This document shows, in pieces, positions 4,573 through 40,095 of a stretch of 64,000 nucleotides of DNA. Each line of letters begins with the position of its first letter. Position 1 is the first letter of the stretch. Origin of the DNA: an uncultured Chitinophaga sp. (GTDB lineage Bacteria; Bacteroidota; Bacteroidia; Chitinophagales; Chitinophagaceae); assembly GCA_964386395.1 (NCBI GenBank), contig CAYLRV010000001.1, forward strand, positions 23,807-87,806. The letters run 5' to 3'. The notes beneath the pieces are model-generated. The model had not been told where the DNA came from. It saw nothing but the letters and a program-made list of their open reading frames with translations, and did not search any database. The position numbers were made by a program, and so were the translations under genes.

Positions 4573-5406
4573 CTATTCGTATTTTTTACTAAGCTGGTAC
4601 AATACTTTCAGCTGCTGGTCATTTAATCCCTTCGTTGTATCCTGCAACCAATGACGTTTGAAACCAATAATGGCTGCATTACTGTCCTTTGTATCATATC
4701 CAATGATCCGCAAGGCATGCAAACGATTGAAATTTGCAGGTAGCTGCACATTCGCTATATCATCATACCAGTACCCGAATCCTTTCTCCGATAATTGCTT
4801 CCAGGGAAAGCGCCAGTTGGGATCATTTTTACGGGTGGGCGCTATATCGCCGTGGCCGATAAAATTGGCTGCTGGTATGGAGTACGCATTTTTCAAACGG
4901 CCAAGCAGGGTGATCAAGCTATTTATTTGTGCTTCGGAAAAAGGCTCAAAGCCATTATTATCAAGTTCGATACCAACTGAAGAGGAATTTAAGTCAGTAG
5001 CATTGCCCCATTTGCTTACACCGGCATGGTGTGCCCTTAATAAATCATTGAGCATATGGTGCACGGTACCATCCTTACAAATTACATAGTGTGCACTTAC
5101 TTCACGGTTGCCTTTCACGGTAAACGTTCTTAACGTTTCCTCACAACTTTTCTGGGCAGTATGGTGGATGATCACATAGTTAGGCCGGCGTATGGTGAAG
5201 TTGATAGTACCAGCCCAATCCGCAGCATAATTCAATCCCGCGGAATCCTGTAAAGGATATTCAGCCAACAACTTTGCATATGCTTTTACCTGTTGCTTAT
5301 AAATTTTATTCGTACCCGCATATTTCGATTGCGAACAACCACAGGCAATAATAAGGAAGGCAAGGGACAGGGAAATGAACAAGCGGCTTTTTAAAAAGGA
5401 TTTCAT
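4573..5406 (-). CDS. N-acetylmuramoyl-L-alanine amidase, AmpD/PGRP (amidase_2) family lipoprotein
   Basis: Has a lipoprotein signal (LAFLIIACGC) and AmpD-like motifs (VIIHHTA, AHYVICKDGTVHHML, AHHAGVSKWG, GIELDN, HGDIAPTRKNDP). Confidence 0.8.
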   Translation of the reverse strand: MKSFLKSRLFISLSLAFLIIACGCSQSKYAGTNKIYKQQVKAYAKLLAEYPLQDSAGLNYAADWAGTINFTIRRPNYVIIHHTAQKSCEETLRTFTVKGNREVSAHYVICKDGTVHHMLNDLLRAHHAGVSKWGNATDLNSSSVGIELDNNGFEPFSEAQINSLITLLGRLKNAYSIPAANFIGHGDIAPTRKNDPNWRFPWKQLSEKGFGYWYDDIANVQLPANFNRLHALRIIGYDTKDSNAAIIGFKRHWLQDTTKGLNDQQLKVLYQLSKKYE

Positions 5407-5424: not shown

Positions 5425-6366
5425 TTACTGGTACTTGCGGTACAATGCATAGATTATTTTACGCACGGTGGCATTCATGGCACCACCAGAGCCATCCCGC
5501 ATAAAGTGGCGCTTAAATGCCGAAACAGCCGATGAAGGGGAGGATATATCATAGCCGATTATACGCAGCGCCATCAGGTAGTCGAACTGATCCGGAACAA
5601 CCATATTCGTCGTATCACTCCACCACAGACCATAGCCCTTGTCGCTGAAGTGTTTCCAGGGAAAGCGGAAATTGGGATCCATTTTTCGTGTAGGTGCTAT
5701 ATCACCATGGCCAATAAAATTGGCATCCGGAATTTTATACGCTCTCTTCAGGCGGCCCAGTAATATTTCAAGGCTTTGCATTTGTGCGTCGGCAAAAGCT
5801 TCGTACCCGGTATTTTCCAGCTCGATGCCAATGCTTGCAGAGTTGAGATCGGTGGTATTCCCCCATTTACCATCACCAGCATGATGCGAACGAAGTAAAT
5901 CATTCAGCATGTGATACACGGTTCCGTCACGGCAAATAAGATAATGTGAACTGGCCTCCCGGCCACCTGGTTTTGTAAATTCTGCCAGCACTTCCCTGAA
6001 TCCCTGGGTGGCTGTGTGATGAATGATAACAAAGTTGGGACGGCGTATGCCCATATTGGGCGTACCCACCCACTCTGCTGCATAAGGCAAGCCGGCTGAG
6101 TCTTCCAGCGGAAATTCAGCAATCACCCTTGCCAGTGAATCAATCATTTTATAATACAACCGGTTTGCGTAAGCGTACCTGCCTGTTGGCATGTATCTGG
6201 CGCTATCTTTTAAAGCTGAATCCAATGGATTTTTTACGATCGGATTGGGGTATTCTGTAATAGGTTGTTCACCCGGTGGTTGTGCAGCAACTGCGCCACA
6301 AAAGAGAAGGGTGGCGATTGCGGAGAGAACAGTCAAATGTTTACATATTGTTAAGGGCTTGTACAT
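5425..6366 (-). CDS. N-acetylmuramoyl-L-alanine amidase, AmpD/PGRP family (tandem paralog)
   Basis: Contains the same amidase_2 motifs (VIIHHTA, SHYLICRDGTVYHML, SHHAGDGKWG, HGDIAPTRKMDP) and is about 60% identical to the upstream paralog. Confidence 0.8.
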   Translation of the reverse strand: MYKPLTICKHLTVLSAIATLLFCGAVAAQPPGEQPITEYPNPIVKNPLDSALKDSARYMPTGRYAYANRLYYKMIDSLARVIAEFPLEDSAGLPYAAEWVGTPNMGIRRPNFVIIHHTATQGFREVLAEFTKPGGREASSHYLICRDGTVYHMLNDLLRSHHAGDGKWGNTTDLNSASIGIELENTGYEAFADAQMQSLEILLGRLKRAYKIPDANFIGHGDIAPTRKMDPNFRFPWKHFSDKGYGLWWSDTTNMVVPDQFDYLMALRIIGYDISSPSSAVSAFKRHFMRDGSGGAMNATVRKIIYALYRKYQ

Positions 6367-8145: not shown

Positions 8146-11100
8146 TTACATATTCCGCCTGTACTGCCCCCCCACTTCATACAATGCATGTGTTATCTGC
8201 CCAAGCGAACAATACTTTACTGTTTCCATTAATTGTGCAAAGAGGTTTCCATTGTTGATGGCCACCCGCTTTAACTCTTTTAACTCCTTTTCACTCTTAG
8301 CTTCATTACGCTTCCAGAAAGCTTTTAAGGCCTCTATCTGCTGCTCCTTTTCTTCGGTGGTGCTGCGGATTACTTCGGAAGGGATTATTGTTGGTGAACC
8401 TTTTTTGTTCAGGAATGTATTCACACCAATCAAAGGCAATTCGCCGGTGTGTTTCTGGTGCTCATAGTACAGGCTTTCTTCCTGTATTTTATTCCGCTGG
8501 TACATTCTTTCCATGGCACCCAATACACCGCCTCTCTCGGTAATGCGGTCGAACTCGGCCAGCACTGCTTCTTCCACCAGGTCCGTCATTTCTTCAATAG
8601 CAAATGAACCCTGTGTAAAATTTTCTGTTTTGGCCGAACCCAATTCCCGGTTAATGATCAACTGTATAGCCATGGCCCGGCGCACACTTTCCTCTGTTGG
8701 TGTGGTAATCGCTTCATCATAGGCATTTGTATGCAGGGAATTGCAATTATCATATATCGCATATAAAGCCTGCAGCGTGGTGCGGATATCATTAAAATCT
8801 ATCTCCTGTGCATGTAAGCTTCTCCCCGATGTCTGAATATGGTATTTAAGCATCTGGCTGCGCTTGTTGGCTTTGTACTTATACTTCATTGCCTTCGCCC
8901 AAATGCGGCGGGCCACCCGGCCAATCACACTATACTCAGGGTCCATACCATTACTGAAGAAGAATGAGAGGTTTGGGGCGAAATCATCGATATTCATCCC
9001 CCGGCTGAGATAATACTCCACATAGGTAAATCCATTCGCCAGCGTAAACGCCAATTGTGTAATGGGATTAGCACCTGCCTCCGCAATATGATAACCACTG
9101 ATAGATACAGAATAAAAATTGCGGACTTTATTTTCAATAAAATATTCCTGCACATCACCCATCAGCTTCAATGCAAACTCTGTAGAAAATATACAGGTAT
9201 TCTGCGCCTGGTCTTCTTTTAATATATCTGCCTGCACCGTTCCCCTTACCTGTTGCAGGGCATCTGCTTTTATTTTGGCATATACATCAGCAGGTAACAC
9301 ATCGGCACCGGATAGGCCCAGCAACCGCAAGCCCAACCCGTTATTTCCGGCCGGTAGCTCACCATGCAGTTCACCTTTTTGCGGTATTACCGGTTTACCA
9401 TCCACACCAATATAGGTGGGCAATTCTCCGGCTTTATATTTTGCTTCAATAATTTTATTGACGTCCTCCCGCAGGTTATTCGCAATAATATATTTCTCAC
9501 ATTGCTGATCAATGGCTGCATTCATAAAAAAAGCAAGCAGCATCGGTGCAGGGCCGTTGATAGTCATACTTACCGAAGTCTTCGGATCGCATAAGTCAAA
9601 ACCACTGTATAATTTTTTGGCATCATCCACTGTGGCAATGCTCACGCCGCTGTTACCTACTTTACCATAGATATCAGGACGATGACCAGGATCTTCACCG
9701 TATAAAGTCACACTATCAAAAGCCGTGGATAAACGTTTGGCTGGCTGATCCACACTTACATAGTGAAAGCGCTTATTGGTACGTTCTGGTCCGCCTTCAC
9801 CCGCAAACATCCTCGTTGGATCCTCTCCTTCCCGCTTCAATGGAAATACACCGGCCGTAAAAGGGAAATGACCCGGCACATTTTCCTGTGCCTGCCATTT
9901 TAATATGTCACCCCAGTCTTTATATTTGGGCAATACCACTTTCGGGATTCTTGTACCGCTTAAACTGGTGCTCGTCATGGATTGTTTTATCACTTTATCC
10001 CTGACGGTGTATTCGTAAAAGTCTTTCTGGTATTCGGCTACTTTCTCCGGCCAGTTTGTTACCAGCTTGCGGCTTACCGGCGTAAGCTGCTCGGTATAAA
10101 AATCTATTTGCTCCTGTATTTGTGAAAGTAAAGACTGATCAGCCTTTTCTTTTAATACAACCAGCGAGCCATTCAACTGGTAAATTTTCGTGGCAATTGC
10201 AGCCTGGTCTTTTACCAGCTGATCATAATTACGGCTGGCCTCACTTATCTCACTCAGGTACCTGGTGCGGTTGGATGGAATAACAGCCGATGAAACCTTG
10301 GCCGTTTCCGCAAAATGAAATTCACCGAAACGGGTATTGGTCTTTGCTTCTATTTTCTTCAGCAACAGTTCAAAGAGATGGTTCACCCCGTCATCATTAA
10401 ACTTGCTGGCCATCGTTCCCACTATTGGCAATTCATCATCCTTCGCTGAAAACAACTGATGGTTGCGTTTATATTGCTTCTTTACATCAGCCAGTGCATC
10501 CAATGCGCCTGCTTTGTCAAATTTGTTGATGCAGACCAGGTCTGCATAGTCCAGCATATTGATTTTTTCTAATTGTGAAGCAGCCCCGTACTCCGGCGTC
10601 ATCACGTACATACTTACATCACAATAATCAAGGATACTGGCATCGCTTTGTCCCACACCGGCACTTTCCAGTATAACAAAATCAAAGCCCGCTGCTTTAC
10701 AAATATCAATGGCCTCCTGTACAGCACTGCTCAGTGCCGTATTATCTTCACGGGTGGCCAGGCTGCGCATATAAGCCCTGGGGTGGTTGATGGAATTCAT
10801 CCGTATCCTGTCACCCAATAAAGCGCCGCCTGTTTTTTTCTTGGATGGATCAACAGAGATTACGGCAATGGTTTTATCCGAAAAATTGTGCAGGAAGCGG
10901 CGTACAATTTCATCGGTTACCGATGATTTACCAGCGCCGCCTGTACCGGTAATACCGAGAACAGGAATCTTCCTGCCCTCAGCCGGAAGACCCGAAATTT
11001 CTTTAAGCTGGTTTGTATAATCACCTCCTTCCTCTGCAATACTGATTGCCCTTGCAATCCGCCGCACATCCTTCACTTCATCCAGTGGCAATTTTCCATT

Positions 11101-11547
11101 CCATTCTGCCGACTGCCTCATACCCGCTGCTGACTGATTAATCACATCCTCAATCATTCCTTCCAGTCCCATATGTCTTCCATCATCGGGCGAATAGATA
11201 CGGGTGATGCCGTAGTTATGTAATTCTTCTATTTCATCAGGTAAAATCGTACCGCCACCGCCGCCAAAGATTTTGATATGGCCGCAGCCGTTTTCTTCCA
11301 GCAAATCCTTCATGTATTTAAAAAATTCCACATGCCCGCCCTGGTAACTGGTAATAGCAATACCCTGCACATCTTCTTCAATAGCTGTTTCTACAATGTC
11401 TTTCACACTGCGGTTGTGCCCCAGATGGATGATTTCAGCCCCCTTACTCTGCATAATGCGCCGCATGATATTAATAGCGGCATCATGCCCGTCGAAGAGA
11501 CTGGCTGCTGTAACAATTCTAACCTTACTGACCGGGGTATAACTCAT
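8146..11547 (-). CDS. icmF: fused isobutyryl-CoA mutase (B12-binding domain + MeaB-like G-protein + mutase TIM-barrel)
   Basis: An 1133 aa protein with an N-terminal B12-binding DxHxxG motif (FDGHDAAIN), a central MeaB P-loop ([12 protein letters not shown]) and a C-terminal methylmalonyl-CoA-mutase-like substrate domain, which is the IcmF architecture. Confidence 0.8.
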
Positions 11548-11817: not shown

Positions 11818-13287
11818 ATGCAGCAAAAAACAGCATCCATTTCATCTTTATACACATCCTGGAAAGGCCAGGCCCCTGCATCGGTCGATCTGTTGCCTCA
11901 AAGTGGCAGCGAACGAAGATATTTCCGTTTACATGGCGGTGATGGCAGCACTGTTATCGGTACTTTCGGAGCCAACATACGTGAAAACGAAACGTTTATT
12001 TATTTCGCCCGCCAATTCACCAAACAAGGATTAGCGGCCCCTGAGATACTGGCTGTAAGCGACGACAAACAGTTTTACCTACAGGAAGATTTTGGTGATG
12101 TATCGCTGATCGATCACCTCGAACAAAAAGGCTATGTGCCTGAAGTTTATGAGTTGTTTAAAAAAAGCCTTGCTGCAATTGCCTTATTGCAGGTAAAAGG
12201 GGATAAAGGACTGGATTACAGCCAATGCCTGACCAATACCGAGTTTGGCAAACAGGCCATTATGGCCGACCTGCTATACTTCAAGTATTATTTCCTGGAC
12301 GCATTACGTAAGCCGTATGATAAACAAAAATTGATCGACGATTTTGAGGCGTTGAGCAATTACCTCACCCACACCGAATACAAATATTTCATGTTCCGCG
12401 ATTTTCAAAGCCGGAATATTATGATACGGGACGAACGACCCAATTTTATCGATTTCCAGGGGGGGATGAAGGGAGCACCTCAATACGATGTAGCGAGTAT
12501 GCTCTGGCAGGCAAGGGCCAACCTGCCCGATGACTGGAAAAACAATTTACTGGAAGATTATATTTCTGCATTTGAAGGGATAATAAAGCAGCCGGTTGAT
12601 CGTACCATATTCCGGAGCCAGTACAATGGGTATGTGCTGATTCGTTTATTGCAGGTCTTGGGCGCCTATGGTTTCCGTGGGTTGTTTGAACGTAAAGCAC
12701 ATTTTTTAACCAGCATACCATTGGCATTAAAAAACCTGAAAGAATTTTTTACCAGCAACAGTGTTGGTATTTCTGTCCCTGAATTTAAAAAAGTACTGGA
12801 TATCTGCGTAGCCGATGAAATCATTGCACAGTTTACACCTACACAGGCCACTGAACAAACACCTTTAGTAATAAAAGTTTGCAGTTTTTCCTATAAAAGC
12901 GGCGGTATTCCGACTGATGAATCGGAAAATGGTGGCGGCTTTGTTTTCGATTGCCGCGGTATTCTTAACCCCGGTCGTGTGGATAGTATGAAAACCCAAA
13001 CCGGCCGTGACAAAGAAGTAAAAGACTACCTCGAACAGCAAACGAAAATGCCCGAGTTCTTAAACAGTGTATTTGATATTGTAGATATTACTGTGGAGGA
13101 TTATATAAAACGTGGCTTTGGCAGCCTGATGGTGAGTTTTGGCTGTACCGGCGGACAACACCGCAGTGTATACGCAGCTGATGCCATGGCCCGGCATTTG
13201 AAAAATAAATTTAAAGTGAAGGTGGAGCTATCACATAAAATCCAGGATGCAAAAAACTGGCTGAACCCTTTACCTGACAAGAAATAA
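11818..13287 (+). CDS. APH-fold kinase (AmgK-like anomeric sugar kinase) fused to a RapZ C-terminal-like domain
   Basis: The N-terminal domain has aminoglycoside-phosphotransferase motifs (FRDFQSRNIMI, IDFQGG). The C-terminal 150 aa match the RapZ C-domain (SFSYKSGGIP...FDCRGILNPG...SFGCTGGQHRSVYAADAMA). Confidence 0.7.
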   Translation: MQQKTASISSLYTSWKGQAPASVDLLPQSGSERRYFRLHGGDGSTVIGTFGANIRENETFIYFARQFTKQGLAAPEILAVSDDKQFYLQEDFGDVSLIDHLEQKGYVPEVYELFKKSLAAIALLQVKGDKGLDYSQCLTNTEFGKQAIMADLLYFKYYFLDALRKPYDKQKLIDDFEALSNYLTHTEYKYFMFRDFQSRNIMIRDERPNFIDFQGGMKGAPQYDVASMLWQARANLPDDWKNNLLEDYISAFEGIIKQPVDRTIFRSQYNGYVLIRLLQVLGAYGFRGLFERKAHFLTSIPLALKNLKEFFTSNSVGISVPEFKKVLDICVADEIIAQFTPTQATEQTPLVIKVCSFSYKSGGIPTDESENGGGFVFDCRGILNPGRVDSMKTQTGRDKEVKDYLEQQTKMPEFLNSVFDIVDITVEDYIKRGFGSLMVSFGCTGGQHRSVYAADAMARHLKNKFKVKVELSHKIQDAKNWLNPLPDKK

Positions 13288-13451
13288 TTATTTACCGGGC
13301 TGCAGTACCCTGATTGGGCTTCCGTTGCGTCGCACACTTCAGCATCCTGTTCTCTAATCAACAATTTTCACCGCAGAGAAAAGAGAACGCTGAGTGTAAC
13401 GGAGAGGTCTCTGCAATTTTTTTACTCTTTTTCTCTGCGGTGACAAAAAAA

Positions 13452-14186
13452 ATGGGCATGCAAGCAATGATATTCAGCGCAGGATTAGGTACACGGTTTA
13501 AACCGTGGACTGATACACATCCAAAAGCATTGGCTATAGTCAATGGAAAGCCATTATTGCAACGCAATATTGAATACCTGCAGCGAAACGGTATTAAAGA
13601 TGTCATTGTCAACGTTCATCATTTTGCAGAACAAATAGAAGAAGCAATCGTTACCAACGACGGTTGGGGAAGCGATGTACTGGTAAGCGATGAAAGGGAT
13701 ATCGTATTAGAAACCGGCGGAGGTCTATTAAAAGCTAAAGATCTTTTTAACCCGGACGAACCTTTTATAACATGTAATGCAGATTTCTTAACCGACCTCG
13801 ATATCAATAAACTGATAGCATATCATAGTCAACAAAAAGCACTTATCAGCTTTGGCGTTACCAGCCGCAAATCTTCCCGCAACTTGTTATTCAATGCAGA
13901 CTACCGCCTGGTTGGCTGGAAAAACAACAGTACCGGAGAAACAAAAATTGCCATACCCGCAGAACCGGTTGCACATGAGCTGGCCTATAGCTGTGTGGTG
14001 GTGTTTGATTACCGCATTTTTGAACTGATGGAGCAATACGGCTTCAGTGGTAAATTCTCTTTGATAGACGTATATCTCAAACTTGCACCCGATCATCGGA
14101 TCATGGGCTACGAGCATACTGGCGACAAGCTGGTAGATGTGGGCAAACCGGAGAGTGTGGCAATAGCTGAAGCTTTATTCGAATAG
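13452..14186 (+). CDS. sugar-1-phosphate nucleotidyltransferase, MurU-like
   Basis: Has the NTP_transferase GxGTR motif (FSAGLGTRFKP) and lies immediately downstream of the AmgK-like kinase. The likely start is MGMQAM at 13452. Confidence 0.7.
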   Translation: MGMQAMIFSAGLGTRFKPWTDTHPKALAIVNGKPLLQRNIEYLQRNGIKDVIVNVHHFAEQIEEAIVTNDGWGSDVLVSDERDIVLETGGGLLKAKDLFNPDEPFITCNADFLTDLDINKLIAYHSQQKALISFGVTSRKSSRNLLFNADYRLVGWKNNSTGETKIAIPAEPVAHELAYSCVVVFDYRIFELMEQYGFSGKFSLIDVYLKLAPDHRIMGYEHTGDKLVDVGKPESVAIAEALFE

Positions 14187-29551: not shown

Positions 29552-29588
29552 AAAAGCCCGGTTTAGAACCGGGCTTTTGTTATTTACT
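29552..29588. terminator. bidirectional rho-independent terminator between convergent genes
   Basis: An AAAAGCCCGGTT...AACCGGGCTTTT hairpin sits between the 29533 (+) and 29584 (-) gene ends. Confidence 0.65.
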
Positions 29589-31035
29589 CTCCTACAACCT
29601 CCTCGCTTCCTTTCTTTCGCCAGGATCTATGTTTAGCCCCGTCCATTTTTACAATCTTCGGGGTAAACTTACCGACCACATCCACCAATGCCTTCTGTGA
29701 TTGCATCACAACATTAATATCCTTGTAGGCAAAAGGTGATTCATCCAGTCCGCCACCCAGCAGTTTTACGCCAAACTTATCCAGTTCGTCTTTCATCTGC
29801 TTATCGGTAACAGAAGCGATGGCCCTTGTACGGCTCATCTTCCGTCCGGCACCATGCGAGGCAGAGTTGACAGATGCGGATTCGCCTTTACCTTTTACAA
29901 TAAATCCATCGGCGGTCATTGAGCCCGGTATAATACCCAATACATCTTTACCTGCAGGTGTTGCGCCTTTACGGTGAACGATCACATCCTTACCTTCCCA
30001 TTTTTCTTTCCAGGCAAAATTGTGGTGATTCTCCACCATCTTCACTGGTTTACGTCCCAGTTGCTTCGCAATTTTGGCATGTATTACATGGTGACAGGCG
30101 CTGGCATAATCACCAGCCAGGTTCATTGCATTCCAATACTCTATGCCTTCTTCTTCATCCAGCAAAAGCCAGGCAAGATTTTTTGATTCCTGCGGCAAAC
30201 GCCTTTTGCTGATAGCCAGTTTAGTATAGTGGTTCGCTATGTTAGCACCTAGTGCCCGAGAACCGGAGTGAGTAAGAAAACCAATGTACTTACCAGCTTC
30301 TATACCCAATACCTGATCTTCTTCTGCAATATCCACGACGCCAAATTCGGCGAAGTGGTTACCCGACCCGGATGAACCTAACTGCTTCCACACACGGCCA
30401 TGCAATTTTTTCAGCATCGGTAGTTGAAAAAATAATTCATGCTCCATCACTTCGTGGTTAGCCGCCCGATCGAATTGTGCGCCGCTGCCAAACAATGTAG
30501 CCTCATTGATTTCACGGGCAAAATATGATTCCCGGTCCGTCAGATCTTTTGGGTTGATATCGAATACACTCAGGCACATACGGCATCCGATGTCTACTCC
30601 TACTCCGTAAGGGATAACAGCATTCTCGGTTGCCAGTACGCCACCGATTGGCAATCCATACCCGCTATGTGCATCTGGCATCAAGGCGCCGGCCACACTC
30701 ACCGGCAATTTAGCTGCCTGGTACATCTGGTGCATAGCGCCTTCTTCGATATGTTCCTGTCCAAATACATTAAACTGTATGCCGGTTTGGTTCAGCGAAA
30801 TTTCTGCCCCTTCCGTTTCTTTCTTTGGTATCAGCTGTTCTGCTATCAATGCAAGTACTGCGTCATTGCTGTACTCGATTGGATTGGCCAATACTTTTTG
30901 TAATAGTTCCATCACTTCCTCCTTTCCATGATGCTTATATTTTTTTTGCATCACATCCATTGCTATGCTAATTACCGGTCCTTCCGGGTAGCCAATAGTC
31001 CTTAGTTCTTTTCCTGTTATTTTTAGTTTACTCAT
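29584..31035 (-). CDS. rtcB: RNA 3'-phosphate/2',3'-cyclic-phosphate ligase RtcB (with about 70 aa N-terminal extension)
   Basis: RtcB metal and GTP-site motifs (MPDAHSGYGLP, GSGNHFAEFG, THSGSRALG, NHHNFAWKE, ASHGAGR) support the call. The start was set at MSKLKITG. Confidence 0.85.
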   Translation of the reverse strand: MSKLKITGKELRTIGYPEGPVISIAMDVMQKKYKHHGKEEVMELLQKVLANPIEYSNDAVLALIAEQLIPKKETEGAEISLNQTGIQFNVFGQEHIEEGAMHQMYQAAKLPVSVAGALMPDAHSGYGLPIGGVLATENAVIPYGVGVDIGCRMCLSVFDINPKDLTDRESYFAREINEATLFGSGAQFDRAANHEVMEHELFFQLPMLKKLHGRVWKQLGSSGSGNHFAEFGVVDIAEEDQVLGIEAGKYIGFLTHSGSRALGANIANHYTKLAISKRRLPQESKNLAWLLLDEEEGIEYWNAMNLAGDYASACHHVIHAKIAKQLGRKPVKMVENHHNFAWKEKWEGKDVIVHRKGATPAGKDVLGIIPGSMTADGFIVKGKGESASVNSASHGAGRKMSRTRAIASVTDKQMKDELDKFGVKLLGGGLDESPFAYKDINVVMQSQKALVDVVGKFTPKIVKMDGAKHRSWRKKGSEEVVGE

Positions 31036-31429
31036 TGTTTTGTTTTTTGAAACACGGTGACAGAGAGACAGGGGCGGCACAGTGTTTTTCGGTGTTGCCC
31101 TGTGTCGTTATGCCTTTGTGGTTCTATTTTTTGTTTACCAGCGACAGTAACTCCGGTCATCTTATGTTGCGTCGCACACTTCAGCTGCATATCCCTAATC
31201 ATCATAATCCCACATAATTTACCCTTTATTTAGATTCTCAAGCGCATCAATAAACTGTGCAACCCTTTCATCTTCTGACTCCTTGATAATAAAATCTAAC
31301 CGTTCAAAAGTATTTTCCAATAGAATTACAACAGTACAAGTGTGCGACGCAAGGGACGATGATAGAAGCAATACAGCCTGTAACATAAAAACATAAAACA
31401 TCCGGTACCGTTATAATACCGGATGTATA

Positions 31430-39044: not shown

Positions 39045-39461
39045 TTAAAGAATCATCCTTTTAATGCCATCTTTCATAAGCGGTGCGTGAAAATTTAATA
39101 CATAGCCAAGCCGCTTTTGTGTAAGGCGCAGGTAACTTAATAGCTGGGCATCCCAAACGGGATGATAGTTATCCTGCGCTTTCAATTCAACAATTATTAA
39201 ATTGTCAATCAATATATCAATCCGAAGACCATCACTAATGATCAATTTATCGTATACCAGTTCTACATTTTTTTGAACAACAAACGGAATATCCCTTTTG
39301 GTCAATTCATAACAGAAGCATTTTTCATACACACTTTCAATTAAGCCCGGACCGAGAAACCTATGGATCTTTATAGCAATATCCATTATTTGATATGTCA
39401 GCCATATTTCCCTTTCGGTTAAAGGTTTATGCTTTTTTTCTGTGCCGCTCCGTGCCGTCAT
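39045..39461 (-). CDS. GxxExxY protein (PD-(D/E)xK nuclease-fold family)
   Basis: Carries the signature HRFLGPGLIESVYEKCFCYEL, and the start was set at MTARSG. The family is typically found in rRNA/tRNA-proximal positions in Bacteroidota and cyanobacteria. Confidence 0.65.
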   Translation of the reverse strand: MTARSGTEKKHKPLTEREIWLTYQIMDIAIKIHRFLGPGLIESVYEKCFCYELTKRDIPFVVQKNVELVYDKLIISDGLRIDILIDNLIIVELKAQDNYHPVWDAQLLSYLRLTQKRLGYVLNFHAPLMKDGIKRMIL

Positions 39462-39483
39462 GCCGCTGTGGTTCAAAATATAA

Positions 39484-40095
39484 TCAGAATAACTCCCCCT
39501 GCTTCGTTGCAACCGGCAGGTTCTGGAATTGGAATGTTGCTGCAATACGATATTTCATTTCCCCCACCGGCCGTTTGAGCAAAGTCATGCCATCAGCAAT
39601 AAACCGACCGGTAAAATGCTTTTGACTATACTCCAGCCAGCCCTTTTCATACTGCCAGGGCTTTAATTTCCGGGCAATGGTCAGGTGGGGCTCCATGATA
39701 AAATGCGGTTTATTATCCTCGTTCAGTTTCATCAGGCGCTGGCTTTCTGTACGGATGCTTTTTACCAGGCCTTGTACCGGTAATTTGCTGGTTACATTGA
39801 TATAAATAGTATGCGCCGGAAAACTGCCAAAATCTTTCAGCTCCACTTTAAATGGCGGGAAGCCCATGGCCACATTCCGCAGCCGGTTTAGTATCCGTTC
39901 TTCCAGCATGGCATGCTGCACAAAATTGACCAGCGTAATATGCGGCTTGCCCCATCTTGCATGATCCGATTTGTACGCAGTAGCAAAATCCTCCTTCACT
40001 TTCATTATCCTTTTCCATAGCTCTTCGTGCGGACTAAGCACCAATAAGTACTCATATTCCCGGTAGCCCGGGATCGTGTTGATAATACTTTCCAT
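39484..40095 (-). CDS. 2H-phosphoesterase superfamily protein (LigT/ThpR-like RNA 2',3'-cyclic phosphodiesterase / 2'-5' RNA ligase)
   Basis: Two H-x-T/S-x motifs are present (HITL and HLTI) in a protein of about 200 aa. Confidence 0.7.
   Translation of the reverse strand: MESIINTIPGYREYEYLLVLSPHEELWKRIMKVKEDFATAYKSDHARWGKPHITLVNFVQHAMLEERILNRLRNVAMGFPPFKVELKDFGSFPAHTIYINVTSKLPVQGLVKSIRTESQRLMKLNEDNKPHFIMEPHLTIARKLKPWQYEKGWLEYSQKHFTGRFIADGMTLLKRPVGEMKYRIAATFQFQNLPVATKQGELF

Follow-up and report, generated by a model that had tools for sequence, protein, structure and literature searches.

What is the RNase adaptor RapZ's C-terminal domain doing on a putative sugar kinase? The question is raised by a 64,000-nucleotide stretch of DNA from an uncultured Chitinophaga sp. 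of the phylum Bacteroidota (contig CAYLRV010000001.1, positions 23,807 to 87,806; hereafter the window). Its gene A encodes a kinase of the aminoglycoside phosphotransferase (APH) fold joined to a RapZ C-terminal domain, and the following gene B encodes a nucleotidylyltransferase similar to MurU. A preliminary description of the locus had combined both genes with two nearby amidases into a peptidoglycan-recycling route, whose kinase, likened to AmgK, has acquired a domain that senses amino-sugar phosphates. Of this interpretation the architecture, the affinity to AmgK and the pairing with MurU stand, and the link to the amidases falls. On balance we lean towards an AmgK–MurU-type salvage pair whose kinase has a built-in module for binding a phospho-ligand. 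This module is probably regulatory and possibly catalytic.

Architecture of the fusion protein

The start codon of gene A is an ATG inside a longer open reading frame (ORF) that begins with TTG, and genes A and B are co-directional (Table 1). The hidden Markov model (HMM) searches suggested in the preliminary description returned all three expected domains. In protein A, Pfam places APH at amino acids (aa) 31–249 (E = 3.3e-12) and the RapZ C-terminal domain PF22740 at aa 351–474 (E = 1.1e-32; 113 bits, cut-off 27), which confirms the fusion as real, and the Pfam domain of protein B is NTP_transferase. The RapZ-motif letters cited earlier are located at aa 440–452 of protein A. Structures of E. 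coli RapZ match aa 350–474 with E = 1e-11 by sequence and E = 5e-28 with a profile of the family. The HMM check thus came out in favour of a RapZ-like C-terminal domain.

Canonical RapZ consists of an adenylate-kinase-like domain followed by the C-terminal domain (CTD), and its relative YvcJ binds uridine diphosphate (UDP)-N-acetylglucosamine (GlcNAc) (PMC9841335). The RapZ equivalog model matches only aa 337–473 of the fusion, corresponding to model positions 149–275, with 103.6 bits against a cut-off of 244, and the N-terminal part is APH. The P-loop domain is indeed replaced by an APH kinase, as had been claimed: a non-homologous kinase fold sits at the position that the P-loop domain has in RapZ/YvcJ (E. 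coli; PF03668 plus PF22740).

In the AlphaFold model of the full-length fusion (predicted local distance difference test score (pLDDT) 90, predicted template modelling score (pTM) 0.72), the kinase extends to about aa 313 and is followed by two more helices, a lower-confidence linker at about aa 340–350 and the RapZ-type domain at aa 351–478. Apart from a disordered C-terminal tail, the linker is the part with the lowest pLDDT. Both domains are significant in the searches and confidently folded in the model. Scans for promoters and terminators around the operon gave counts at chance level.

The kinase domain and its relation to AmgK

When the kinase part was compared with NCBIfam at E ≤ 0.001, two AmgK models, NF045759 and NF045698, were the sole kinase families matched. 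The first of these covers aa 29–308 of the fusion and scores 60.9 bits over model positions 28–303 of 324. The same holds for the relatives: among 60 diverse fusion proteins, NF045759 was matched in all 60 and NF045698 in 59. Among the 25 NCBIfam families matched by the largest numbers of these 60, Bud32 (12 members) was the only kinase-type family other than RapZ and AmgK, and none was an antibiotic APH family.

A search of all PDB sequences with the kinase part returned a single significant match, 3csv (E = 2.7e-10, and 2.6e-24 with a profile), which is also the best Foldseek match of the model (template modelling score 0.78 on the target). This structural-genomics entry, a putative aminoglycoside phosphotransferase from the alphaproteobacterium Silicibacter sp. 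TM1040, is the closest solved structure of the kinase domain; it differs in having 333 aa and a single domain, and in lacking the RapZ C-terminal domain. A 274-aa fragment of it scores 238.7 bits on NF045698, and the nearest solved structure is therefore itself of AmgK type.

The active-site motifs are intact. Across 148 relatives, R194, D195, Q197, R199 and N200 of the catalytic loop are invariant, as are D212, G215 and G216 of the metal-binding motif. Protein A has the APH/eukaryotic-like kinase fold of AmgK with its catalytic Asp-x4-Asn loop and metal-binding Asp, and it shows the genetic coupling to a MurU-type uridylyltransferase, by adjacency and, in many Bacteroidales, by fusion, that marks AmgK. 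With AmgK of Pseudomonas putida and Caulobacter crescentus, its best-matching characterised family, it shares the APH fold, the intact motifs and a position directly upstream of a MurU-like gene; the expected role is likewise a bypass of MurA/MurB by salvage to UDP-N-acetylmuramic acid (MurNAc). It differs in the extra RapZ C-terminal domain of about 130 aa after a variable linker, in scores far under the equivalog cut-offs, and in that kinase, RapZ C-terminal domain and MurU form one polypeptide in many Bacteroidales.

Could the protein instead modify an antibiotic? Owing to the APH fold, Foldseek gives generic matches to APH(3') and APH(2'') at 11–17% identity. By sequence, however, neither NCBIfam nor the PDB yields an antibiotic APH match to protein A at E ≤ 0.001 (corramycin phosphotransferase reached an insignificant E = 0.09 in the PDB search), and throughout the phylum the gene belongs to the conserved chromosomal core and has a MurU partner. 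We consider this reading extremely improbable and have rejected it. A grouping with antibiotic APHs, which would have spoken against the original proposal, was not found, because it is the AmgK models and 3csv that match, the catalytic motifs are intact and sequence comparison brings up no antibiotic APH at E ≤ 0.001. AmgK is the closest family to this kinase.

The MurU-like partner and gene linkage

Gene B lies within an ORF at 13314–14186. Its probable start is the ATG at 13458, with an alternative ATG at 13452; the former is also the call on an independent assembly that bears an identical gene A. The best NCBIfam families of protein B are two MurU models, and other families of sugar-1-phosphate nucleotidylyltransferases match it less well. 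Its best relatives in the PDB are the MurU structures 4y7t and 8hhd, which match over the full length with E = 4–5e-17. The segment FSAGLGTRFKP of protein B aligns with LAAGKGERMRP of 4y7t, the G-x-G-t-R-x-x-P signature; this N-terminal signature aligns well, whereas the C-terminal sugar-binding half aligns poorly. With 242 aa and the signature present, protein B is a minimal, single-domain sugar nucleotidyltransferase such as MurU.

Within the 170-bp spacer between the two genes, which has a folding energy of −45.5 kcal/mol (z = −2.0), lies a 74-nt hairpin whose imperfect stem measures about 18 bp. No second copy of the arms was found in the window, nor any copy in the 85 loci compared, and the hairpin is not conserved in relatives, where the two genes are often contiguous or overlapping.

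A word-indexed search with the fusion protein returned 8000 matches, the best 120 of which carry both Pfam domains without exception. When 1.84 billion cluster representatives were searched exhaustively with HMMER, 711 clusters (50% identity) matched at E ≤ 1e-30; the best 150 of the 711 are nearly all end-to-end matches, mostly of 470–495 aa. The sources given by name are Chitinophagaceae, Ferruginibacter, Sphingobacteriales, Chitinophagales, Bacteroidales, Paludibacteraceae, Muribaculaceae and Bacteroidaceae. Two out-of-place labels, metagenome-assembled genomes of Citrobacter and of Dongiaceae, are probably mis-binned. This survey, which the preliminary description had called for, finds the fusion across Bacteroidota, and the wording that the kinase "has acquired" a domain understates the case: the fusion is the standard form of the enzyme throughout the phylum and no local novelty.

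The pairing with MurU is equally real. In 80 of 80 related loci from Chitinophagaceae, a MurU-like gene lies 3' of the fusion gene. In three distant genomes (L081, L082 and L084), whose fusion proteins are 41–46% identical to that of the window, every other neighbouring gene differs. Even so, the gene immediately after the fusion encodes an NTP_transferase, and in two of the three its start codon overlaps the stop codon of the fusion gene. Many proteins of 700–800 aa, moreover, combine APH, RapZ C-terminal domain and NTP_transferase in one polypeptide, the usual state in Bacteroidaceae and Muribaculaceae. For the Muribaculaceae protein P0212, 109 of the 120 best relatives carry all three domains; some triple-fusion clusters have hundreds of members, the architecture is present on many independent contigs, and one such protein recurs in 35 blocks of the sequence collection, on contigs of up to 310 kb. 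MurU models are again the best families for the third domain (7 scanned). These triple (Rosetta-stone) fusions indicate that kinase, RapZ-type domain and transferase work together.

Two variants of the arrangement were seen in relatives. In Bacteroidaceae-type loci (L086, 2786–6017; L087 and L088, 2803–6001), the triple-fusion gene is preceded by three conserved genes encoding a DUF4836 protein, an ABC ATPase and a permease (Pfam Transporter_N / PCD-like / Transporter_C). These genes overlap or abut, as does the last of them with the triple-fusion gene, and the run is possibly an operon in which transport is coupled to the salvage enzyme. In the P0182 cluster (Paludibacteraceae, 718 aa), a 3'-5' exonuclease domain, DNA_pol_A_exo1, stands N-terminal to the kinase and the RapZ-type domain. 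Six members of the cluster, drawn from several sources, show this variant, which might be genuine or might result from two gene calls having been merged.

Conservation of the RapZ-type domain

In E. coli RapZ, a pocket defined by C247, T248, G249, H252 and R253, together with H190, D182 and R184, binds sulphate or malonate, contacts the RNA backbone and is the proposed site for glucosamine 6-phosphate (GlcN6P); the C247S and R253A exchanges abolish function (PMC9841335). The isolated CTD binds GlcN6P (PMC7073468). We set 249 diverse fusion proteins against residues 160–277 of E. coli RapZ in an alignment. In the anion-binding loop, C443, G445, G446, H448, R449 and S450 are invariant (249/249 each), and G442 and T444 are each kept in 248. 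The equivalents of RapZ D182 and R184 are kept in 248 and 249 proteins, respectively. D367, D378 and H473 are invariant as well, and two further invariant features, a GGG insertion and a Cys (C379, in D-C-R), are peculiar to the fusion family. Identity to distant relatives is 47% in the RapZ-type domain, 39% in the kinase and 6% in the linker, and the density of invariant residues is higher in the RapZ-type domain than in the kinase.

The basic residues with which RapZ contacts RNA have fared differently. The equivalents of K170 and R196 remain Lys or Arg in most relatives; at the other positions, Glu mostly replaces K194 and Gln mostly replaces K251, R238 has become Phe or Tyr, and R211 varies. 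The tail past the invariant His473 is short and uncharged, and the domain has a median net charge of 0, with a pI of 7.3 compared to 9.2 for the E. coli CTD fragment. Because the pocket is invariant while several RNA-contact basic residues and the basic tail are gone, the domain is, by this alignment, under strong selection for the anion pocket and shows little sign of selection for RNA binding.

These data bear on whether the protein is a RapZ-like RNA-binding adaptor that recruits RNA or an RNase to control amino-sugar genes. The CTD fold is kept, as are the Lys or Arg residues at the positions of K170 and R196, and yet we regard this as very unlikely: the P-loop domain is missing, the RapZ score of 103.6 bits falls short of 244, four RNA-contact positions (K194, R211, R238, K251) are not basic, there is no basic tail and the net charge is 0. 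GlmY and GlmZ are, going by the title of a reference in PMC9841335, enterobacterial small RNAs. Of the features that mark RapZ, the fusion thus has the CTD fold with the sulphate/malonate pocket (judged on the set H190, T248, G249, H252, R253 and C247), and lacks both the basic RNA-binding surface with its basic tail and the N-terminal, adenylate-kinase-like P-loop domain (Walker A/B); a true RapZ adaptor was rejected on these grounds. Compared to RapZ/YvcJ, it has an unrelated APH-fold kinase as its N-terminal domain and Gly in place of H190, it lacks the basic tail and several of the basic residues that contact RNA, and it has no GlmY/GlmZ context.

The fusion architecture as such is already catalogued, with Pfam domain pairs precomputed for thousands of entries. 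NCBI names for the family are "RapZ C-terminal domain-containing protein", "phosphotransferase" and "RNase adapter RapZ"; the last is borne in NCBI/JGI records by many members, P0037, P0044, P0052, P0122, P0246 and P0312 among them. On the domain evidence, this last name is a systematic and misleading over-annotation, because the members so named are without the RapZ P-loop domain and under the cut-off of the RapZ model. We found no mention of RapZ together with AmgK in the literature searched, and no mention of kinase–RapZ fusions in the RapZ structural paper PMC9841335.

A second question is whether the domain is mainly structural, an oligomerisation or docking module that assembles kinase and MurU for channelling without any metabolite signal. 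In RapZ the CTD makes dimers and the tetramer requires it (PMC9841335), the domain sits between kinase and MurU in triple fusions, and its linker is flexible. Such a role, however, would leave unexplained the absolute conservation of a solvent-exposed anion loop and pocket across relatives of 35–45% identity, and we think it quite unlikely.

The conserved residues could also form a catalytic site, in which the C-x5-R-S loop would act as a cysteine phosphatase or phosphotransfer centre on a sugar phosphate. The C-T-G-G-x-H-R-S loop is invariant together with D378, D367, H473 and C379, and lies on a strand-loop-helix element, and the domain is richer in invariant residues than the kinase. E. coli RapZ C247S is inactive, a possible catalytic thiol has been remarked on by the authors of that study, and density for a "chemically transformed product" of GlcN6P was seen in the RapZ pocket (PMC9841335). 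Nevertheless, the structural similarity to cysteine phosphatases is weak, and phosphatase activity has not been reported for any RapZ-family protein in the literature examined. We give catalysis a small but appreciable chance of being right. One example would be the dephosphorylation of MurNAc 6-phosphate, which in Pseudomonas is performed by the haloacid dehalogenase (HAD) phosphatase MupP; the protein, or the triple fusion, would then carry two or three consecutive steps.

A wider form, which we hold to be rather improbable, is that the RapZ C-terminal domain is an ancient catalytic or substrate-presenting module for phospho-sugars, always at work beside a kinase, and that in Bacteroidota its pocket acts on a sugar 6-phosphate, for instance as a MurNAc 6-phosphate phosphatase like MupP or as a phosphotransfer site. 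The kinase in question is of P-loop type in RapZ/YvcJ and of the APH fold here. If true, the fusion and the triple fusion would be a multi-step assembly line from MurNAc 6-phosphate to UDP-MurNAc, and the RNA-adaptor role of enterobacterial RapZ would be a late addition to an enzyme-like domain. The phosphofructokinase domain that binds fructose 6-phosphate bears a remote resemblance to the RapZ-type domain (5–13% identity, no common motif) and is not a member of the family.

Proposed mechanism

From the architecture, conservation, gene linkage and fusions observed here, we infer substrates, a ligand and a regulatory effect for the salvage pair. The APH-fold domain would use ATP to phosphorylate the anomeric hydroxyl of MurNAc, and probably of GlcNAc too, yielding MurNAc-α-1-phosphate and probably GlcNAc-α-1-phosphate. 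The MurU-like enzyme would convert the sugar 1-phosphate into the UDP-sugar, which would feed peptidoglycan synthesis without MurA/MurB; the whole module would be cytoplasmic. On its variable linker, the RapZ-type domain would serve as a module for binding a phosphate ligand, with the anion pocket of RapZ kept and most of the RNA-binding surface gone. It might bind an amino-sugar phosphate or UDP-amino-sugar of the pathway, and binding might tune kinase output or hand the product to MurU, so that salvage would be matched to the state of the precursor pool. The AmgK–MurU pathway has been reported in Bacteroides species (PMC8054146) and is essential in T. forsythia, which is without MurA/MurB (PMC8054146, PMC7670621). 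When placed in E. coli, AmgK and MurU of T. forsythia turn MurNAc probes into UDP-MurNAc (PMC10941766, PMC13041923).

Several points weigh against this proposal. Both AmgK models score below their naming cut-offs (60.9 against 550 bits for NF045759, 44.1 against 500 for NF045698), and the best MurU model gives protein B 118.6 bits against a cut-off of 250; with scores so far under the NCBI thresholds, the substrate identity is one that we infer. The equivalent of RapZ H190 is Gly in 239 of the 249 fusion proteins, followed by Arg or Lys, and the ligand may therefore differ from GlcN6P. Dense invariant residues, including the Cys of the C-x5-R-S loop, would also fit a catalytic site. With a pTM of 0.72, the inter-domain geometry of the model is uncertain. 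The role of the RapZ-type domain in the fusion family is predicted from sequence, and the characterised AmgK of T. forsythia may lack such a domain. The invariant anion pocket appears suited to a phospho-ligand; sensing of an amino-sugar phosphate such as GlcN6P by the domain, as the preliminary description had it, is unproven.

The low scores also leave some room for a pair that salvages a sugar other than MurNAc, such as GlcNAc or GalNAc only, another hexosamine, or a uronic sugar for capsule or lipopolysaccharide. Both proteins are far under the equivalog cut-offs, and other sugar-1-phosphate nucleotidylyltransferase families match protein B too, although less well. The similarity to AmgK and MurU would then stem from nothing more than a common fold and general chemistry. 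This seems improbable to us: among characterised families AmgK and MurU score highest, independently for each gene and in all relatives tested, the AmgK–MurU pair defines the pathway in Proteobacteria, and the route is reported in Bacteroides species and T. forsythia.

Amidases and other genes of the window

The preliminary description had drawn two tandem amidases into the salvage module. Both Amidase_2 proteins bear N-terminal signal sequences, one of them with a lipobox-like ...IIAC, and AmpD is the best NCBIfam match of both, below its cut-off. Given these signal sequences, the amidases resemble exported AmiD-type enzymes rather than cytoplasmic AmpD. A DEAD-box helicase, a small ORF and an IcmF-like fused mutase lie between them and gene A. 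Of 80 Chitinophagaceae loci, 42 have the tandem amidases next to the fusion, and none of the three distant loci does; their co-occurrence is ordinary family-level synteny. We rejected a functional link, since the amidases have signal peptides, lie on the opposite strand behind unrelated genes and are missing at the distant loci. Among the window ORFs of at least 150 aa that were scanned, no AnmK, NagZ, MurQ, AmpG or HAD phosphatase was found.

The IcmF-like gene is divergent from the kinase gene, an arrangement that is kept in 80 of 80 related loci. Further along the window, genes for an RtcB RNA ligase, a PD-(D/E)XK nuclease and a LigT-like 2'-5' RNA ligase lie within about 10 kb. This cluster may be an RNA-repair neighbourhood unrelated to the kinase–MurU module.

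Table 1. Features of the window, with positions counted from its first nucleotide
Feature	Positions	Strand	Evidence
Fusion gene (gene A): AmgK-like APH-fold kinase and RapZ C-terminal domain, 489 aa	11818–13287	+	ORF/translation, Pfam, NCBIfam, AlphaFold
Kinase domain, about aa 1–330, including nucleotide-loop-like GSxRRYFR at aa 30–37	11818–12807	+	Pfam, NCBIfam, match to 3csv
Catalytic loop R194-D195-F-Q-S-R-N200, Brenner-type xDxxxxN	12397–12417	+	Conservation in 148 relatives
Metal-binding motif I-D212-F-Q-G-G, DFG equivalent	12448–12465	+	Conservation; aligns with IDFQDA of 3csv
Variable linker, aa 331–349	12808–12864	+	Low identity, low pLDDT
RapZ C-terminal domain PF22740, aa 350–478	12865–13251	+	
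Anion-binding loop G442-C-T-G-G-Q-H-R-S450, equivalent to E. coli RapZ G246–S254	13141–13167	+	Conservation in 249 relatives
Hairpin in the spacer between genes A and B	13369–13442	+	
MurU-like sugar-1-phosphate nucleotidylyltransferase gene (gene B), 242 aa	13458–14186	+	Pfam NTP_transferase, NCBIfam MurU, PDB 4y7t/8hhd
Two tandem Amidase_2 paralogues	4573–5406 and 5425–6366	-	Pfam, signal sequences
IcmF-like 1133-aa fused B12-binding / MeaB GTPase / methylmalonyl-CoA-mutase protein	8146–11547	-	
RtcB RNA ligase	29584–31080	-	
PD-(D/E)XK nuclease	39045–39545	-	
2'-5' RNA ligase (LigT-like)	39484–40095	-	

Significance

The layout described here is standard across Bacteroidota and present in databases, and the role of the extra domain is predicted. 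RapZ/YvcJ proteins are widespread, and to our knowledge their core biochemical function beyond the enterobacterial GlmY/GlmZ circuit is unresolved. In the fusion family the same domain, with its pocket untouched, is permanently joined to a different kinase of the UDP-amino-sugar pathway, and in many gut Bacteroidales to the next enzyme too. This is independent evolutionary evidence that the primary business of the domain is amino-sugar phosphate chemistry and not RNA, and it makes the fusion family a simpler system for finding the ligand or the reaction of the RapZ domain. The AmgK–MurU bypass underlies intrinsic fosfomycin tolerance and serves the metabolic labelling of peptidoglycan, and for both it would be of consequence if the enzyme had a control or catalytic domain built in. 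The fusion thus opens a new and testable way into the RapZ domain's core function, and into how the fosfomycin bypass is controlled in Bacteroidota.

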